Assembly (NCBI GenBank): GCA_001782515.1
Contig: MFOV01000012.1
Coordinates: forward strand, 5,832-43,214
DNA: 37,383 nucleotides
DNA from: Candidatus Levybacteria bacterium RIFCSPLOWO2_01_FULL_39_10
GTDB lineage: Bacteria; Patescibacteriota; Microgenomatia; Levybacterales; UBA12049
Reading direction: 5' to 3'
Part shown: positions 26,834 through 37,383 of the stretch, piece by piece
How positions within the stretch are numbered: the stretch's first letter is position 1
Layout: each line of letters begins with the position of its first letter
Translations under genes and position numbers: made by a program
Notes under the pieces: generated by a model
The model's database searches: none
Told to the model about the DNA's origin: nothing
What the model saw: only the letters and a program-made list of their open reading frames with translations

Positions 26834-27127
26834 ATGGCGAGAAAGGACCTGCCTGCCGGCAGGCAGGAGTGGTCGAATGAGGTTACTAAACATAGTATTG
26901 CGCTGGATCTTGAAGAAGGGGTTTTTACATGGGATGATCCGAAAAAAATTGCCTCAAGTCTTAAGCGTTCGGCTGATGTTAGTACAAGAAGAAAAGCCTC
27001 ACCTTTTCAATCCGCAATGAGCATGCTTAATTTTTATATTAACCGCGCTGGTAAAAATCTAAACCCTAGGAAAAAGAAAATACTTGAGGAAGCAAAAATA
27101 GAGCTTCGAAAGATATTCACCGAATAA
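26834..27127 (+). CDS. DUF3175-family protein with an N-terminal palindrome-derived insertion
   Basis: WS.EVT.HS.ALDLE.GVFT, SAMSMLNFYINRAGKNL. Confidence 0.85.
   Translation: MARKDLPAGRQEWSNEVTKHSIALDLEEGVFTWDDPKKIASSLKRSADVSTRRKASPFQSAMSMLNFYINRAGKNLNPRKKKILEEAKIELRKIFTE
26848..26867. repeat. Perfect 20-bp palindrome CCTGCCTGCCGGCAGGCAGG inside the CDS
   Basis: Read directly; encodes LPAGRQ. Confidence 0.9.
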
Positions 27128-27165
27128 GGGCAATTATAGCACTTCGCTTTTGCTCAGCGTAAACA
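27128..27165 (-). repeat. Boundary motif GCTATAATTGCCC preceded by CTGAGCAAAAGCGAAG
   Basis: Minus strand CTGAGCAAAAGCGAAGTGCTATAATTGCCC closely matches CTGAGCAAAGTCGAAGGGCTATAATTGCCC in the 76-bp repeats. Confidence 0.8.
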
Positions 27166-27169
27166 GAAG

Positions 27170-27793
27170 TTATTTACTGAATATTGTTATTCCGCCGTTA
27201 GAGCCGGGGAAGTTGAAAGCTTTTTCAAAATCTTTTAGAGTAATTTTTCTTCCTTTGATTGGTGGTAGTCCAGGGTCGTGAAGAATTATATTTCTTCCGT
27301 CAAAATCATAAAGCAAAATGTAATGTAAAGAAAAGCCTGGCTTGTTGTTTAAAATTCTGGAATTTACTTCTACGCTAACCAAAAAGCCGTCTTTTAAGTT
27401 TTCTGTTATTTCATTAACAGATCCTTTTCTTATCTCGTGCTTTACGTTTTTGAGAAATTCCGGAATAAAAGGGATTACTGATTTGATATTGCTTTTGTCC
27501 AGATAATAATCCGCTGTGTCTTTGCCGACCACTTTTCTAAGGTAATCCGGGCCGTCTTTGTAAAGTTTTTTGTAATCGACGGGTTCTACGCTCGTGATTT
27601 TTAAACCTTTTTTTGCAAAGTATGTAAGTCCGGGGAATGTCCAAGTTCCTTTTCTGGAGACAGATTTCATTATTCTATCTATTTCGCGCCAATTTAAATC
27701 TTCACCAAAATAATATTTGCTAAGCATTCGAAAGACTGCGGGACAACAGTGCATGTTATCGGAAGAATTAGCTACAAACGGGATCTTTTTCAT
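27170..27793 (-). CDS. Peptidase C39-like (papain-fold) protein
   Basis: N-terminal HCCPA, HYILLYDFD, ILHDPG. Confidence 0.7.
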   Translation of the reverse strand: MKKIPFVANSSDNMHCCPAVFRMLSKYYFGEDLNWREIDRIMKSVSRKGTWTFPGLTYFAKKGLKITSVEPVDYKKLYKDGPDYLRKVVGKDTADYYLDKSNIKSVIPFIPEFLKNVKHEIRKGSVNEITENLKDGFLVSVEVNSRILNNKPGFSLHYILLYDFDGRNIILHDPGLPPIKGRKITLKDFEKAFNFPGSNGGITIFSK

Positions 27794-27807
27794 GGGGCAA
27801 TTATAGC
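27794..27807 (-). repeat. Boundary/promoter motif GCTATAATTGCCCC directly before ATG
   Basis: Plus strand GGGGCAATTATAGC. Confidence 0.9.
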
Positions 27808-29084: not shown

Positions 29085-29762
29085 ATGGCGGTTGCGCAGG
29101 AAACACTAAACGCTCCACACCACACCGATTCAGAAGCGGAATCTGCTTTTATCCCCCTAAAAATGACACAACGATCAGTAGACATTGATATCGATTTTTC
29201 AAAAGTAAATCCTGATAATATAATTGGTAAAATATACGAAGATGAATGTTTCAAGAGAGTAATTGAAGAGCTTGGGCCAAGCGAGGTTGCGTATGGTGCA
29301 CATTTTTTAAACAGAGCATTTAACTCTCACCTTAAAGCAAGAGGGGTTTCAATACCAGATGCATTAGTTGGTGAAGTTGATTACTCAACGCAGGTGTTAG
29401 ATCAATCTGGTGTTCCAGTTGATAGGTCCGTAATAAGAGTGAAACGAATTATTGAAGCGCGAACTGGAGAAATCAATGGTATATATAAACTAAAAAGATT
29501 TGGAAACTTAACAGCGGAAATTAGAAGAAATCCGGAATTTTTTACAATGGCAATTAGAAAGTTACTTGCTGGTAGGGGTGGGGTTTTAAATCTTGCTTTT
29601 TTATTTGCTCCGCCCGATGGGGAACTAGAAGTTGATTTTTATTCCCCACATCAACATACAGAAAGAGAAGTAGCTGATGCTAAAAGACAGCTTGGAGAAC
29701 ACCCTTTTAGAAAAATAGGATATAAAACTGTTCCTCTTCCGATTTTCACCCCTGCAGTATAG
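29085..29762 (+). CDS. Hypothetical protein, possibly a degenerate PD-(D/E)xK fold
   Basis: 225-aa ORF; IPDALV...IIEARTG. Confidence 0.6.
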   Translation: MAVAQETLNAPHHTDSEAESAFIPLKMTQRSVDIDIDFSKVNPDNIIGKIYEDECFKRVIEELGPSEVAYGAHFLNRAFNSHLKARGVSIPDALVGEVDYSTQVLDQSGVPVDRSVIRVKRIIEARTGEINGIYKLKRFGNLTAEIRRNPEFFTMAIRKLLAGRGGVLNLAFLFAPPDGELEVDFYSPHQHTEREVADAKRQLGEHPFRKIGYKTVPLPIFTPAV

Positions 29763-31174: not shown

Positions 31175-31233
31175 TAAGACATTATAACAAAGTGGAATCT
31201 ATTTATATTATGATGGAGCTCTAAAATTACTTG

Positions 31234-31305
31234 CTCCGCAGCTAGGACTCGAACCTAGAACCTTATCCTTAACAGGGATCTGCTCTACCATTGAGCTACT
31301 GCGGA
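31234..31305 (-). tRNA. tRNA-Asn (GTT), CCA not encoded
   Basis: TCCGCAG acceptor stem, GCTC/GAGC D-arm, loop CTGTTAA, CTAGG-TTCGAGT-CCTAG T-arm. Confidence 0.96.
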
Positions 31306-31362
31306 ATGTTTGATAATTATATAAAATTAGCCTCAAGATGTAAACCTGCTATAATTGATCCA

Positions 31363-32032: not shown

Positions 32033-32059
32033 ATTTATCTCATTTGCTATAATTGCCCC

Positions 32060-32548
32060 ATGAAGGTTAACGAAAATATTATTTGGGACTTACTTAGACT
32101 TTCGCTTTCATTTATTTTTCTCTGGGTATTTTTTGATAAATTATTTGGACTTGGATTTGCAACCGGAGCAAGTAAATCATGGCTTGCAGGGGTCTCTCCT
32201 ACAACCGGATTTTTAGCAAATGCTCCCGATGGACCACTTGCTCCGCTTTTTAACAGTCTCTCAGGAAATATTGTGATAGATATTTTATTTATGGGAGGAC
32301 TTTTTTTAGTTGGATCTGCACTACTTCTTGGAATCGGGATGAAGATTGCTGGTTACTCAGGATCTTTAATGATGTTTTTAATTTATCTTTCTCTTTTTCC
32401 TCCGGAGAATAATCTCTTGATTGACGAACACATTGTTTATATTATTATTCTGATTGGCTTGGTCATAAGAGGTGAAAAACAAAAATTTGGGTTCGGCAAA
32501 AAATGGTCAGAAGTTAAATTAGTTAAAAAGTATTCAATCCTTCAATAG
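32060..32548 (+). CDS. DoxX-family membrane protein
   Basis: LRLSLSFIFLWVFFDKLFGLG, SPTTGFL, LIDEHIVY. Confidence 0.8.
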   Translation: MKVNENIIWDLLRLSLSFIFLWVFFDKLFGLGFATGASKSWLAGVSPTTGFLANAPDGPLAPLFNSLSGNIVIDILFMGGLFLVGSALLLGIGMKIAGYSGSLMMFLIYLSLFPPENNLLIDEHIVYIIILIGLVIRGEKQKFGFGKKWSEVKLVKKYSILQ

Positions 32549-32577
32549 ATAAATTCCCCTTTTGCTATAATTGCCCC

Positions 32578-33039
32578 ATGACTTCCTCTGAATTTTTCAA
32601 AATAATTGAATATATTACCCAAAACTGCAGGGATTTAAAAAATAAATATATAAGCGAAGATTTAAAAATTGATTACGTTTGCATATTTTCGAAAAGCCAA
32701 AAGGAATTTGATGAACTTTTAAAATTTGCGTCAAGCATAGGAGAATTGGCAGAACAAACAAAAACAGGGCCTGTTTTTAAATTAAATAATTCTCCAGATA
32801 CAATTATTGGCAAACCAAAAATGCTAAAAATAAGAATTCCCGATAAAACAAGACTGGAAAGAGGAGACGTGGATTTTAATACAGACTATGAAAATTTCAA
32901 AAAAAAGTATCTTGATAACAAAAGATTTACTTTAATAAAAAGGGACAACTTTGAAATGCTTGAACTGCGAGATAATTCCTTTGATGTTCTGGTTTACTTC
33001 TCAAGCATTCCTCTTAGCGAACAGTTAGGAGTAAATTAA
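32578..33039 (+). CDS. Hypothetical protein
   Basis: 153-aa ORF starting directly after the motif. Confidence 0.75.
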   Translation: MTSSEFFKIIEYITQNCRDLKNKYISEDLKIDYVCIFSKSQKEFDELLKFASSIGELAEQTKTGPVFKLNNSPDTIIGKPKMLKIRIPDKTRLERGDVDFNTDYENFKKKYLDNKRFTLIKRDNFEMLELRDNSFDVLVYFSSIPLSEQLGVN

Positions 33040-33063
33040 AAGCTAAGCTGCTATAATTGCCCC

Positions 33064-33390
33064 ATGATTATAATCCTCAAAAAAAGAGCTACGAAAGATG
33101 ATATTAAAAAAATGTCAGAAGATTTTGACGGATATATTAAGCTTGTTGTCGACATTGAAAAAGAAATATTGGCCGGAGGCGGAGAGAGGCATTTTGAAGC
33201 AGAACAAAAATTAATTAATGATGGTTCACACCAAACAAGTCTTTGGGGCGGCGGATTAGATTGGGATACTCGCGAGATAGATTATAATTCAATTTTAAAT
33301 CTTCGGCCGGGGGTAAATCCAAGCCGTGATATTCTCTCCGAAATTATAAGAAAAAAGTTTGATAAAATAGTTGAAGATATTCTTCTATGA
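33064..33390 (+). CDS. DUF5674-like protein
   Basis: IKLVVDIEKEILAGGGERH..E..L...GS.Q..LWGG, SILNLRP. Confidence 0.75.
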   Translation: MIIILKKRATKDDIKKMSEDFDGYIKLVVDIEKEILAGGGERHFEAEQKLINDGSHQTSLWGGGLDWDTREIDYNSILNLRPGVNPSRDILSEIIRKKFDKIVEDILL

Positions 33391-33698
33391 CAAGTACAAA
33401 ATTAAAAATTCTAGACATAGCGATGAACCTTAATAGAGTTGGTAACTTTGCCGCAGATGGGTATGATATAAAACAAAAAAGAATAAAAATATTTCTTAAT
33501 CAAACCTCAGAATACATAGACTCTCTCTCTATCAAAGATTTACCAGACTCATTTAAAAGAACATACTTAAATTTTCTAAATCAATATAAATATCTTAAAA
33601 AGGAAGGATTATCAGGACCTAAAAATGAGCTTGAATGGGCTGAAAAAATGATGACATGGGGAAATATTTTGACTCACCGTGCAAACCTCATAAAATAA
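33387..33698 (+). CDS. Hypothetical helical protein coupled (ATGA overlap) to the DUF5674 gene
   Basis: 103-aa ORF. Confidence 0.7.
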   Translation: MTSTKLKILDIAMNLNRVGNFAADGYDIKQKRIKIFLNQTSEYIDSLSIKDLPDSFKRTYLNFLNQYKYLKKEGLSGPKNELEWAEKMMTWGNILTHRANLIK

Positions 33699-33701
33699 CT
33701 T

Positions 33702-33777
33702 CCTTGCCCTATCGTAGCCTTAGGGCGAAGTGGGGTGCTTGCCCTGAGCAAAGTCGAAGGGCTATAATTGCCCCAGT
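33702..33777 (+). repeat. 76-bp direct repeat, copy 1
   Basis: CCTTGCCCTATCGTAGCCTTAGGGCGAAGTGGGGTGCTTGCCCTGAGCAAAGTCGAAGGGCTATAATTGCCCCAGT. Confidence 0.95.
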
Positions 33778-33992
33778 TATTTTAGCCTGAGGAATTCTTC
33801 TTCACTAGACTCCGCTTGTTTGATTATACTTCTTACCAAACCTTTTTTCAGTTCTCTGGCATGAATGGGAATAGGAATAATCCTCTTTAACTTGGGATTA
33901 TACATAATAAGATGGCTGCCGGTTTGTCTTTTTTGAATGTACCCCAGTTTTTGAAGAATTTTAACTATCTCTCTTGCTTTAAAACTTGCCAT
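33777..33992 (-). CDS. hicA: HicA-family toxin
   Basis: LQKLGY..RQTGSHLIM, IPIHARELKKG..RSIIKQA. Confidence 0.92.
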   Translation of the reverse strand: MASFKAREIVKILQKLGYIQKRQTGSHLIMYNPKLKRIIPIPIHARELKKGLVRSIIKQAESSEEEFLRLK

Positions 33993-34262
33993 TTATAGAG
34001 ATACTGCTGGATTTTGTACGGAAATTTGCGTGATGACAACATTTGGCCCTTCTTGTGGAATTTCTTGTTTTTCTTCTTTAAGAACCTCCAAATACCCTTC
34101 CATGGCATCTTTTATCATAGACACCGCTTCCTCAAAAGTTTCCCCCTGGCTAACGCAGCCAGGAAGTGCCGGAACACTTACCACATATCCGCCTTCTTCA
34201 GCCGGTTCAAAGATAGCAGTATATTTTAAGATTTTTTTTGAAAGAGATTTTACTTTTACCAT
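33993..34262 (-). CDS. hicB: HicB-family antitoxin (short, no DNA-binding domain)
   Basis: EEGGYVVSVPALPGCVSQGETFEEA. Confidence 0.92.
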   Translation of the reverse strand: MVKVKSLSKKILKYTAIFEPAEEGGYVVSVPALPGCVSQGETFEEAVSMIKDAMEGYLEVLKEEKQEIPQEGPNVVITQISVQNPAVSL

Positions 34263-34291
34263 GAATTAATTATAGCATACTCAAACTCTTC

Positions 34292-34367
34292 CCTTGCCCT
34301 ATCGTAGCCTTAGGGCGAAGTGGGGTGCTTGCCCTGAGCAAAGTCGAAGGGCTATAATTGCCCCAGT
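34292..34367 (+). repeat. 76-bp direct repeat, copy 2
   Basis: Identical to 33702-33777. Confidence 0.95.
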
Positions 34368-34403
34368 GCGTGACAAAATGTATGCTAATATGGTAATATA
34401 TTT

Positions 34404-34688
34404 ATGAATACATCCTTTGAATGGGATGAGAGTAAAAATACCGAGAATTTAAGAAAGCATGGAGTAGGTTTTGAGACTGCCCAATTCGCATTTATTGATT
34501 TAAGACGCGTAATTGCTCGGGATCTAACTCACAGTAAGAGAGAAAAGAGATATTTTTGTTTCGGAAAAGTTAAAGGAGGTGTACTGACTGTTCGCTTTAC
34601 CTATCGGAGCAATAAAATTCGCATAATTGGCGCTGGATATTGGAGAAAGGGCAAAAGCATATATGAAAAACAAAATAAAATACAGTAA
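34404..34688 (+). CDS. brnT: BrnT-family toxin
   Basis: FEWDESKNTENLRKHGVGFE, EKRY, LTVRFTYR..IRII. Confidence 0.9.
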   Translation: MNTSFEWDESKNTENLRKHGVGFETAQFAFIDLRRVIARDLTHSKREKRYFCFGKVKGGVLTVRFTYRSNKIRIIGAGYWRKGKSIYEKQNKIQ

Positions 34689-34893
34689 TGAACCAATCGA
34701 GGCTCGTGTAGTGAGTGATTTCTTACCTAAGCCTGAGGATTTGGTTTTAAAAGAAAAAAAGATAAGGGTAACCTTAACTCTTACCGAGAAAAGTTTGGAC
34801 TTTTTTAAAATAGCTGGTAAAAAACATGGGGCTCCTTATCAGGCAATGATAAGACGCCTTCTTGATTTTTACGTTGCTAATCAAAAAGCCTAA
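34663..34893 (+). CDS. BrnA/CopG-like antitoxin
   Basis: DFLPKPEDL, RVTLTL..LDFFK, PYQAMIRRLLD; overlaps brnT. Confidence 0.85.
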   Translation: MKNKIKYSNEPIEARVVSDFLPKPEDLVLKEKKIRVTLTLTEKSLDFFKIAGKKHGAPYQAMIRRLLDFYVANQKA

Positions 34894-35009
34894 ATAAGTT
34901 TTGGAAGAATTTCCTCTTCTGCTATAATTGTCCCCATAGCCGATTTCCAAGAAGTCACTATAGGATATTGTGTTTTGAGGGGAGTAGTGCTATTATCGCT
35001 CAGCAAAAA

Positions 35010-37383
35010 ATGCGAAAGGGGTTTTGGAGAAAGTTCTCTGCATTCCTTGCCCTAATTTCGATACTTGCCCAATCGTTAGTCCTTTTATTGGCTTCGGCAC
35101 CAAGAGTATATGCACAAGAAGAGGTAGAACAAGTTGCACTTGAAGAATCTGTAACAGAAACTCCTATTCCTACTACCTCTGATGAAATAACCGCATCTCC
35201 CTCACCAGAAGATCAACCTCAAATAACTCCCGAAGAGGCAATCTTTGAGATAGACATAACCCTCACACCACCAGAAAACGTTACGCCTTCAAATGCTCAG
35301 ACACAAAATGAGTTGGAGCAACTAGAAAATCAGGAAAACAATAATAGTCCAAATGAAAAACCACAAGATGAAGAGCCACAAGAGTATAATGAAGAACTCC
35401 ACGTTATAGTTATCAATAATGTTTCTGCTGAATCTTTAGATTTAGAAACAACTGTAAAAGATTCTTCGGCAACACTTACTACCGATAAGGCCGACTATTC
35501 TCCAACAGACACGGTTATTATTAGCGGGAGCGATTTTAAGCCGGAGCAAACATATAAGCTAATAATTACATCAGAAAATGAGCCTCCTGCCCACTTTGAA
35601 ACAGAAATTAAATCTGATGAAAACGGATCTTTCATATACGCTTATCAGCTAGACGGGACGTACAGACCAAACTATAAAGTTGAGGCAAAAGACGAAGATG
35701 GAAATATTATCGCAACTATAACATTTACAGACGACATCCAAGCCCCTGTTCCCTTTTCAGACTCCTTTGGGACTGTAAATTCGTCTTCGGTAACTAATTG
35801 GGATGAACAAGATCCTGCGGAAATAACAAGTGGTTCAGGTGAGGATTCTTCAAGACCGGGGTCTCCTACTACAAAATTTGCAAAAATTGGACAATCAAGC
35901 GGCGGAACAGATGGATGGATTAGGCGAACGATCAACGCAACAGGATTTCAATCTCTTCAACTTAAATATTACTGGAGAGGAGATAGTGACGCAGAAAGTA
36001 ATGACTTAGGAATTGTAGAATATTGTTTGGGAGCGACTTGCACTTCTTTTAACCAGCTCGTGACTCATGCTTTGAACAATACTTCCTGGAGCGGCCAGCA
36101 AACCATAAATTTGCCCTCATCGCTTAATAATTCTGTCTTTAGAATAAGATTTAGAAATAGTTCCAGCAATACTGATGAATATTTTAGAGTAGATGATGTT
36201 GAAGTAGCGGGCTCTGGGATAGTTCCGCCGGATACCATTCCTCCAACTGACCCAGCTGATGTCCATAGTACTGACCACACAATCAATGTACCATCAAGTG
36301 ACAATACTATTGCTATTGCTTGGACCTTAGCCGGTTCTGCTCCCGGGGCTACTGATTCAGAATCCGGGATTGACGGATATTCATATTCATTTAGTGGCGG
36401 GGCTGCTGATTTACCAGATACAGTAAAAGACTCGGAAGAATCATCAATAGGGACAACGAGTAGCTCTCTTTCAGACGGCAATTGGTGGTTTCATTTAAGA
36501 ACCAGAGATAATGCAGGCAACTGGACATCAACGGTGCATATCGGCCCATTTATAGTAGATACCGGTGCTCCGGTTTTATCAGAGGCAACAGCTGTCCAAA
36601 CCCCAACAAATGATACGACCCCAGCTTATGTATTCAATTCTGATGAAGAAGGGACGGTTTCATATGGAGGCAGTTGTTCCAGCCCAGATTCGTCTGCAGT
36701 TTCTGGCAACAATACTATTACTTTTAACTCTCTTTTGGATGGAACCTATTCTGATTGTACAATTATAGTTACGGATTCTGCGGAGAATAGTAGTACGCCT
36801 TTGGGTGTATCTCCATTTACAGTTGATACGCTGGCTCCTACATCTTCATTTACTTCTCCAGAAAACAACAGTTTCTGGAACAGCTCAATAGAAATCTCCG
36901 GAAGCTCAATTGACCCATCAGGTAATTTTGTAGATTATGTTACGCTATATTACTCCCTCTCAGGAGAAAATGACTGGAATGAGATTACCCAAGTTACTAA
37001 TAATGCAGATACCCCTTTTAATTGGAGCTACAGCTGGGAACCCGAAAATGAGGTGACTTATGACATAAAGGCTGAGGCAACAGATGTTGCTGGAAACACG
37101 GAGACAAGCCCCATAGTCACAAATATAACTTATGATATTACATCACCCACAGATCCCGATGTTTTCTCAAGTAGCCATGCAGTTGGTACTTGGTCAAATG
37201 ATCCAACCGTTGATATTGAGTGGGGTGGGGCTGCGGACTTTTTGTCTGGAGTAGCCGGTTATTCATTTCATTTTGATTCCTCGCCAAGCACGCTTCCTGA
37301 TGAAGTATCAGAAGGGTTAGTAACATCAACAACAAGTGAGGGGCAAGGCGATGGAGACTCACACTACTTTCATTTAAGAACAC
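35010..37383 (+). CDS. Large secreted acidic Ser/Thr-rich surface protein with Ig-like/FN3-like repeats; 5' part (at least 791 codons), absent from the ORF track
   Basis: Translated by hand: signal-like MRKGFWRKFSAFLALISILAQ..VYA, E/P/T linker, TDKADYSP, repeated DT.PP and D.AGN motifs; frame open to the window end. Confidence 0.88.
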   Translation, partial: MRKGFWRKFSAFLALISILAQSLVLLLASAPRVYAQEEVEQVALEESVTETPIPTTSDEITASPSPEDQPQITPEEAIFEIDITLTPPENVTPSNAQTQNELEQLENQENNNSPNEKPQDEEPQEYNEELHVIVINNVSAESLDLETTVKDSSATLTTDKADYSPTDTVIISGSDFKPEQTYKLIITSENEPPAHFETEIKSDENGSFIYAYQLDGTYRPNYKVEAKDEDGNIIATITFTDDIQAPVPFSDSFGTVNSSSVTNWDEQDPAEITSGSGEDSSRPGSPTTKFAKIGQSSGGTDGWIRRTINATGFQSLQLKYYWRGDSDAESNDLGIVEYCLGATCTSFNQLVTHALNNTSWSGQQTINLPSSLNNSVFRIRFRNSSSNTDEYFRVDDVEVAGSGIVPPDTIPPTDPADVHSTDHTINVPSSDNTIAIAWTLAGSAPGATDSESGIDGYSYSFSGGAADLPDTVKDSEESSIGTTSSSLSDGNWWFHLRTRDNAGNWTSTVHIGPFIVDTGAPVLSEATAVQTPTNDTTPAYVFNSDEEGTVSYGGSCSSPDSSAVSGNNTITFNSLLDGTYSDCTIIVTDSAENSSTPLGVSPFTVDTLAPTSSFTSPENNSFWNSSIEISGSSIDPSGNFVDYVTLYYSLSGENDWNEITQVTNNADTPFNWSYSWEPENEVTYDIKAEATDVAGNTETSPIVTNITYDITSPTDPDVFSSSHAVGTWSNDPTVDIEWGGAADFLSGVAGYSFHFDSSPSTLPDEVSEGLVTSTTSEGQGDGDSHYFHLRT

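Follow-up and report, generated by a model that had tools for sequence, protein, structure and literature searches.

The stretch of DNA described here, which we call the window, comprises 37,383 nucleotides (nt) of the genome of Candidatus Levybacteria bacterium RIFCSPLOWO2_01_FULL_39_10 (C12:5832–43214 of genome G000, which has 921,647 bp in 31 contigs and 37.6% GC). Our subject is a 14-nt sequence, GCTATAATTGCCCC, hereafter the box, which marks the boundaries of a tandem array of short gene cassettes. Exact copies of the box are found on the plus strand at 32046–32059, 32564–32577, 33050–33063, 33761–33774 and 34351–34364 and are followed by a sixth copy with one mismatch, GCTATAATTGTCCC, at 34921–34934 (+). 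A first-pass annotation of the window had read these six co-oriented copies as an integron-like array whose boundary site is a promoter; the positions and the spacings of 518, 486, 711, 590 and 570 bp that it gave are right, and the sequence at all six copies bears out that an ATG directly follows the boxes at 32046, 32564 and 33050 and that none follows those at 33761, 34351 and 34921. When up to two mismatches are allowed the window contains nine matches to the box as compared to 0.17 expected, and this number was reached in none of 100 shuffles.

Cassette 1 (32060–32563, +) consists of a 162-amino-acid (aa) multi-pass membrane open reading frame (ORF; 32060–32548) that starts immediately after its box. 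It matches no family, and the label DoxX given to it earlier has to be dropped (no Pfam match at E ≤ 1 and no NCBIfam match). Cassette 2 (32578–33049, +), again with the ATG at once, encodes a 153-aa ORF without family, and cassette 3 (33064–33760, +) encodes DUF5674 (33064–33390) with an overlapping 103-aa partner (33387–33698) and ends in REP-like units. The fourth box faces the 3′ end of an inverted hicA, as cassette 4 (33775–34350, −) carries HicA (33777–33992) and HicB (33993–34262) on the opposite strand, with hicB having its own leaderless promoter form, TGCTATAAT-N6-ATG. Cassette 5 (34365–34920, +) contains BrnT (34404–34688) and BrnA (34627–34893), and a promoter scan predicts a separate promoter inside it at 34370–34399. 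The contents assigned earlier to these last three modules were recovered with Pfam. A 76-nt stretch made up of two REP-like units, the box and 3 nt (33702–33777, +) recurs with 100% identity at 34292–34367, corresponding to C12 39533–39608 and 40123–40198. The sixth, variant box precedes a large surface-protein gene, whose 5′ part occupies 34968–37383 (+) and which runs past the end of the window, splitting the array into two halves. The full ORF of 1207 aa (C12:40799–44422) encodes a repeat-rich secreted surface protein that stands in mid-array directly behind the variant box.

Further copies lie upstream. An exact box on the minus strand (27794–27807) has the ATG of a Peptidase_C39-like ORF (27170–27793, −) directly 3′ of it, and this inverted cassette (27141–27793, −), recognized by a family profile and by genome comparison, is closed by a box with one mismatch, GCTATAATTGCCCT, at 27127–27140 (−). 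The Peptidase_C39 cassette occurs twice in G000 in opposite orientations: the second, direct copy (C12:44556–45204) is 90.9% identical, and both copies have a box at each end. Just upstream of the direct array lies a tRNA-Asn(GTT) gene (31233–31305, −), and a box-like promoter with two mismatches, GCTATAATTGATCC, is found at 31348–31361 (+), 1 nt before the ATG of a 52-aa ORF. Apart from this tRNA, Rfam at its gathering threshold detected nothing in the array or at the outlying copy on contig C15 described below. Between the inverted and the direct boxes we noticed a 225-aa ORF without family (29085–29762) that neighbours a methyltransferase and an AAA_33/zeta-like kinase; its only match is a weak one to anti-DarT factor A (E=0.19).

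Beyond the end of the window six more exact copies follow on the plus strand (C12:44561, 45204, 45736, 46457, 46750 and 47444), so that the array is about twice the size first noted: the six copies described at first stand, and to them are added the inverted pair upstream and the six exact boxes downstream. In its entirety the array has two parts with 12 exact and two one-mismatch boxes over ∼15 kb. This region, locus 1, is situated between a DUF3175 gene (26834–27127) and MltG/YceG in G000 as well as in a related genome of the same genus, G002. MltG is present in 16 of the 16 genomes of the genus, whereas DUF3175 is found in only 3 of them, all box-positive (G000, G002 and G013), and is therefore probably itself accessory. 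In G013 the DUF3175 gene lies among degenerate box-like promoters with two to three mismatches (L196 7054–8510). The array sits in a hypervariable locus of a small candidate-phyla-radiation genome.

Both G000 and G002 have a second locus, between a gene for a 310-aa Xer-like protein and a YebC-family gene. This interval measures 2.1–4.7 kb in eight box-less relatives, 5.3 kb in G000, where it contains two one-mismatch boxes, and 10.9 kb in G002, where eleven boxes with at most three mismatches are present. No alternative repeated motif was found in the Xer-to-YebC interval of the eight box-less relatives. In two species a 7-nt tandem repeat, (AGCAAAT)n, occurs beside a 279-aa gene near yebC (L012 4162–4196 and L148 1417–1451).

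The box itself is sharply delimited. In an alignment of 64 instances with at most one mismatch from more than 10 genomes, the information content is near maximal from position −1 (T in 88%) to position +13, and position +14 is A in 64%, so that the conserved block reads T-GCTATAATTGCCCC-A or, at 15–17 nt, (C)T-GCTATAATTGCCCC-A. The same 64 instances revealed no conserved flank and no −35 element, and according to a simple promoter scan no more than three of the six boxes in the direct array have a −35-like hexamer. The box is weakly palindromic (GCnATnATnGC), and it can be parsed as T-G-C-TATAAT-TGCCCC-A(TG), that is, an extended −10 element, a 6-nt discriminator and an A at +1. This is the form of a sigma-70 extended −10 leaderless promoter (TGnTATAAT, ∼6–7 nt, and at +1 a purine, the A with which the start codon begins), and from it we infer that the box fires as a promoter. 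Leaderless starts are common in this genome, as TATAAT-N6-ATG opens 45 ORFs of at least 60 aa compared with 1–5 at spacings N0–N5. In agreement with the earlier statement that other promoters of this type have unrelated spacers, the N6 of the 45 starts varies freely. TGCCCC, on the other hand, recurs in the arrays and at a single exact copy elsewhere (among the TATAAT-TGCCCC-ATG starts listed, eight of nine are on C12). Therefore, the invariant TGCCCC is not explained by promoter grammar.

Of the 13 exact copies in the genome, 12 lie within C12:33638–47457 (∼14 kb). The thirteenth, at C15:29812 (−), is placed between rpsJ plus a 218-aa membrane ORF on one side and rplC on the other (region C15:29700–30520; L020 3700–4550, − strand). 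The arrangement resembles an insertion by which the S10 ribosomal-protein operon would have gained a new promoter. The 218-aa membrane ORF is itself preceded by the box-like sequence GTTATAATTGCTGT, and another two-mismatch box is found 86 nt beyond the C15 site. One could imagine that the box is the promoter or operator of an ordinary regulon of co-regulated stress and accessory genes, in which the repeats arose by tandem duplication of promoter regions. The perfect extended −10 element, the leaderless spacing, the near-copies before genes outside the array and the exact copy upstream of rplC would be expected of a regulon. The clustering of 12 of the 13 exact copies in one locus would not, and it also tells against a motif dispersed throughout the genome, a finding by which the first-pass annotation would have considered its proposal refuted. 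In addition, the cassettes are unrelated to each other and not duplicates, and at 22 of 122 boxes there is no gene that the box could express, as detailed below.

The box is not confined to one genome. The exact 14-mer is present in nine genomes among 41 relatives and in 16 of 245 genomes of the order, compared with two matches in total for the reversed control pattern. Several copies are carried by G000 (13), G002 (15), G012 (4) and G013 (3), which are four species of the same genus, and by G076 (2), G172 (3) and G244 (4) from three other genera. G002 has one array of 10 exact copies on C13, all on the plus strand within 7.3 kb, and another of four exact copies on C16, all on the minus strand; with one mismatch allowed these arrays comprise 12 and 9 boxes, respectively. 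A metagenome search with a pattern consisting of the box followed by ATG recovered 31 contigs, of which 16 have two to seven boxes that are co-oriented within each contig. Altogether a single orientation is observed in 26 of 27 multi-box loci, the exception being G000 with 12 boxes on the plus and two on the minus strand. Among the matches listed, the named public records with arrays are labelled Candidatus Levyibacteriota and Candidatus Gottesmanbacteria. Scanning genome contigs with a 16-mer gave two or more boxes in 5 of 119 loci among the matches listed, the rest being mostly single chance matches, and viral contigs yielded 16 single matches, which resemble coding sequence, and no arrays.

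What lies between the boxes is small and diverse. The 88 box-to-box intervals shorter than 4 kb range from 78 to 3795 bp (median 615 bp) and contain 87 ORFs in array orientation and 24 inverted ones; 16 intervals are without an ORF of at least 45 aa. A Pfam search of 88 representatives identified ParE (four members), Hydrolase_4 (four) and Glyoxalase (three), and further RidA, isochorismatase, GNAT, HicB, Phd, LigT-like proteins, AAA_33/zeta-like kinases and redoxin, and no recombinase appears among the 25 families listed for cassette ORFs. The content is integron-like, with ParE, Phd, HicAB and BrnT toxin–antitoxin pairs, glyoxalases, hydrolases, GNAT, RidA, isochorismatase and redoxin. In G002 there is also a mini cassette of 78 nt between two boxes, present in four copies (L011 6828–6933 and 13335–13440; L012 5946–6051 and 11922–12027). 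It contains a hairpin, CTTCCCAC...GTGGGAAG, and translation from the ATG located 1 nt behind the box would give a peptide of 27 aa that terminates at the TAA of the next box. In G013 a different mini cassette of 96 nt occurs twice (L015 1048–1143 and 1766–1861).

How the boxes relate to the genes behind them was assessed for 122 distinct boxes, a set biased to box plus ATG because the metagenome pattern required the ATG. In this set 65 boxes are followed within 0–2 nt by a start codon that opens an ORF and 35 by an ORF after a leader of 3–150 nt; at 13 the 3′ end of an inverted gene comes next, and at nine no ORF does. The proposal that each captured ORF receives a leaderless promoter thus holds for about half of the boxes (65/122 of this biased set) and not for the rest. 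Promoters of their own are predicted for the toxin–antitoxin cassettes. Inverted and self-promoted cassettes, as far as their predicted promoters tell, keep the box where a promoter cannot serve them.

That these cassettes move, and that they do so at the box, is seen at several evolutionary distances. Metagenome contig L176 is 100% identical to G000 over 1,610 nt. This stretch takes in the Peptidase_C39 cassette, a LigT-like cassette and the box behind it, as far as ...CTGCTATAATTGCCCCA, and with the base after that L176 becomes unrelated; beyond the breakpoint it has cupin-like and hydrolase-like cassettes that are absent from the whole G000 genome. A second contig, L172, is 100% identical to G000 over 1,827 nt from CTGCTATAATTGCCCC of the LigT-like cassette onward, through a BrnT-like/CopG cassette and a 77-aa cassette, and immediately upstream it is unrelated. 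Therefore, cassettes that are 100% identical are found in three arrangements, and it is precisely at the box that these diverge. These strain-level breakpoints, which the first-pass annotation had asked to look for at the motif, are the strongest evidence for mobility.

Between species the same pattern is observed. The BrnT-like/CopG cassette is 98.9% identical between G000 and G002 over 726 nt, with the identity beginning 2 nt before the box and stopping at the base before the next box, whereas the core genes flanking the same locus are only ∼68–69% identical at the DNA level and 62% (MltG) to 85% (Xer-like) at the protein level. The hicBA and the BrnT-like/CopG cassettes stand in opposite order in the two genomes, and the hicBA cassette is bounded by boxes in three species (G000, G002 and G012) at 80–87% identity. 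Gene order is not fixed at the orthologous loci: from one species to another, units bounded by boxes have been gained, lost or reordered. Cassettes are shared between genera as well: a Phd/ParE-like cassette shows 92–95% protein identity between genera g1 and g58, and a 253-aa inverted ORF 93% between genera g1 and g97. In G244 both ends of the cassette with the 253-aa ORF abut the box region and homology starts with the first base after the left box, and in G002 homology stops at the last base before the right box. The box is sharply delimited, the arrays are co-oriented and the cassettes recur in other strains, species and genera in other orders and contexts, with sequence identity beginning and ending at the box edges. 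What varies as a unit is the box-to-box interval; at every evolutionary distance sampled, identical strains included, the junctions fall inside the 15–17-nt box or at its edges. For the ordinary regulon considered above neither the breakpoints exactly at the box between 100%-identical strains nor cassettes that are up to 98.9% identical across species with ∼30% core divergence would be expected, and we regard this explanation as quite improbable.

Since all genomes compared are metagenome assemblies, chimeric joins created by a repeated k-mer, at the assembly or the binning step, could mimic such breakpoints. The box (14–17 nt) is shorter than the k-mers used by assemblers, and arrays of this kind are found in many metagenome-assembled genomes and metagenome contigs. 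In an assembly check, Logan contigs of four DNA runs were compared with 19.5 kb of the region, and collinear contigs without any difference confirm the assembly; contigs of independent runs reproduce the array order with 0 differences, one of them, of 2,048 nt, spanning four boxes. An artefact of this kind is hardly conceivable.

The likeness to integrons raises the question whether this is a classical integron or an attC cluster lacking an integrase (CALIN) in which the attC sites have been overlooked. Co-oriented arrays of short and unrelated cassettes, which often encode toxin–antitoxin systems, would fit, and so would the 24-nt REP-like units, of weak hairpin potential, that precede some boxes. 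From one to five such units (consensus like GCTTGCCCTGAGCAAAGTCGAAGG) are located in some cassettes exactly between the cassette end and the box. Examples of such tandem units, among them GCTTGCCCTGAGCAAAGTCGAAGG and GTTTACRCTGAGNGAAASCGAAGT, are at 33702–33760 and 34292–34350 in the window, at L011 13244–13334 and around L017 7249–7400, and they are present in some copies of a cassette and missing in others. However, most junctions lack REP-like units, and these units also occur at eight other places in the genome: of ten matches found, two, both of the 23-nt unit, lie directly before a box. They form a second repeat family and look like a small mobile element in its own right, with a preference for the upstream edge of the box. 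Moreover, when six junctions were folded as single strands the z-scores ranged from −0.2 to −1.5, which is not significant and not attC-like; and in the alignment of 64 instances nothing is conserved outside the box and no R″/R′ GTTRRRY cores are present. The only tyrosine recombinase adjacent to an array scores 121.7 bits against the integron-integrase model TIGR02249, far below the cut-off of 265, and is XerC/D-like, just under the XerC and XerD cut-offs. The first-pass annotation, which had noted neither attC site nor integrase, was correct in this respect: no attC-like fold, no integron integrase and, beside most arrays, no recombinase was found. A classical integron or CALIN is accordingly very improbable.

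Which enzyme could act on the box has been approached by comparing the recombinases of box-positive and box-less genomes, as had been proposed from the outset for tyrosine, serine and HUH enzymes, and none of the families compared tracks the box. Xer-type tyrosine recombinases are the only recombinases found in all box-positive genomes. The 310-aa Xer-like type adjoins locus 2 in G000 and G002, where the array points away from the gene, and this neighbourhood is conserved synteny that is also found in box-less genomes. No tyrosine recombinase lies near locus 1, and in G076 and G244 all PF00589 genes are distant from the arrays. When all seven recombinase-like proteins of G000 were compared by tblastn to 44 array loci, only the Xer-like protein of G002 was matched. 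A small serine recombinase gene (C12:495–938; L002, 282-aa frame, Resolvase E=2.3e-41) is situated ∼32 kb upstream of the arrays, and no counterpart of it was found in G002, G012 and G013.

Several observations weigh against recombination of cassettes at the box by a dedicated enzyme. Searches for Phage_integrase, Resolvase, IS110, TnpB and Y1_Tnp tied no recombinase to the arrays: one or two housekeeping-like tyrosine recombinases are present in every genome of the genus, with or without the box; the 310-aa Xer type was not found in the box-positive genomes G244 (97% complete) and G013; Resolvase-family serine recombinase genes are present in only two of five box-positive genomes and IS110 and TnpB domains in none of the five; and Y1 HUH (Y1_Tnp) genes, which never lie at the arrays, were detected in 21 of 25 genomes whether or not these carry the box. 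With 15–17 nt and no conservation in the flanks the site is short as compared to known sites of tyrosine and serine recombinases. The left end of the 253-aa cassette in G002 has no box. Near-copies with one to three mismatches also precede single genes elsewhere, and the box therefore also lives as an ordinary promoter. Finally, among the joints listed from Logan contigs of the four DNA runs there was neither an excised circle nor a clean box-to-box deletion joint. The joints that were listed (with sides of 20–33 nt, high depth and in part REP-like letters in between) come from other organisms or from repeats and were rejected.

Could the arrays arise without any dedicated recombinase? The box would then be a very strong, selected leaderless promoter; cassettes would be lost by slippage or short-homology deletion between the 14–17-nt direct repeats and gained by natural transformation and a subsequent recombination anchored in neighbouring cassettes that are shared, or in the box. 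Deletion independent of RecA is known to be favoured by short direct repeats, and the lack of an array-linked recombinase, the box-like promoters before single genes outside arrays and the identical flank of more than 1.6 kb shared by the strain variants, which is usable as a homologous anchor, all agree with such a scheme. It leaves unexplained that the same 14-mer bounds unrelated genes from different genera. We consider it unlikely, albeit worth keeping in mind, because the discriminator TGCCCC is invariant while 45 other leaderless promoters vary, because co-orientation is strict in 26 of the 27 multi-box loci and because the box is retained at inverted and self-promoted cassettes. On balance we favour, as rather probable, an integron-like array of mobile gene cassettes that are bounded by, and recombine at, a promoter-like box.

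Among systems that stockpile and shuffle cassettes of single genes, only integrons are, to our knowledge, well understood, and they rely on a dedicated integrase and on folded attC sites. The arrays described here resemble integrons and CALINs in their co-oriented, short, unrelated and mostly single-gene cassettes with one conserved site per junction, in the many toxin–antitoxin pairs, some of them inverted and self-promoted, in cassettes common to several taxa and in their location at hypervariable chromosomal loci. They differ in that the site is a double-strand-looking box of 15–17 nt instead of a folded attC of 57–141 nt; in that its place is the 5′ end of the cassette gene and its form that of a promoter, whereas the cassettes of integrons mostly lack promoters and are transcribed from Pc; in that neither IntI nor an attI beside an integrase was found; and in that there are two or more array loci per genome.

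Other systems share single traits with the arrays. The pdif (Xer) modules of Acinetobacter plasmids and other Xer-dependent mobile elements are likewise small modules, often of toxin–antitoxin or accessory genes, between copies of a short site, and they are moved by housekeeping recombinases acting in trans; pdif, however, is a 28-bp site whose two 11-bp arms flank a 6-nt spacer, and it alternates in orientation, whereas the box has 15–17 nt and is repeated directly. In the vpma and vsa surface-antigen loci of Mycoplasma, too, a short recombination site is located 5′ of each clustered gene and an Xer-like recombinase is adjacent, as at locus 2 of G000 and G002. These loci invert paralogous genes onto one promoter, whereas here the cargo is unrelated, the repeats are direct and every site is promoter-like. 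Elements of the IS200/IS605 type (Y1 HUH) and PATEs are characterized by subterminal hairpins at either end and by linkage to a Y1 transposase. The alignment of 64 instances and the junction folds showed no conserved hairpins at the cassette ends; breakpoints at both edges of the box together with the strict co-orientation would fit a single-strand mechanism. Putative mobile promoters have been described as sequences of at least 50 nt with at least 80% identity in the −150 to −50 region before unrelated genes, mostly in pairs (Nijveen, Matus-Garcia and van Passel 2012, PMC3575422). As with the box, the same promoter sequence stands before unrelated genes within and between taxa; here, in contrast, the similarity is confined to 15–17 nt at −15 to +1, and the box bounds tandem cassettes, so that genes move between copies of the box.

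Building on integron-like recombination at the box, we suggest the following mechanism as the simplest. A cassette would leave or enter by recombination between two boxes in a Campbell-type manner, such that one box per junction remains. The free and probably circular cassette would recombine with a chromosomal box, and in this way arrays would grow in one orientation. The enzyme would act in trans, not being encoded beside the arrays. An ORF that starts with the first base of its cassette would give rise to a leaderless mRNA wherever the cassette lands, while inverted or self-promoted cassettes such as the toxin–antitoxin pairs would keep the box only as a recombination site. The promoter shape of the box, together with an ORF that opens at the first base behind it in about half of the cassettes, suggests that integration and leaderless expression may be coupled.

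In the open-access full text searched, with subscription journals and supplements outside its scope, we found no description of such arrays in candidate-phyla-radiation bacteria. More tentatively, and as a possibility that falls short of being probable, the arrays might represent a new class of gene-capture system in these bacteria, in which the site is the −10/discriminator segment of a leaderless promoter, exactly the stretch that is melted by RNA polymerase, cassettes are inserted, excised and exchanged across genera by an enzyme other than the integron integrase and captured ORFs starting right after the box are expressed without a ribosome-binding site. The enzyme might be a housekeeping recombinase of the Xer type, a Y1 HUH protein working on the opened promoter, or a protein not yet described. 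In populations the arrays behave like integrons, as cassettes are gained, lost, replaced, reordered and shared between genera, and yet the site is wholly different. If this holds true, gene capture would have evolved more than once, a way of coupling integration with immediate leaderless expression would exist, and the short site and its enzyme could be turned into a compact tool for recombination. The bacteria that carry the arrays are ultra-small and depend on a host, their routes of gene exchange are largely obscure, and the arrays would, if our interpretation is right, provide a handle on the flux of accessory genes in candidate-phyla-radiation genomes.

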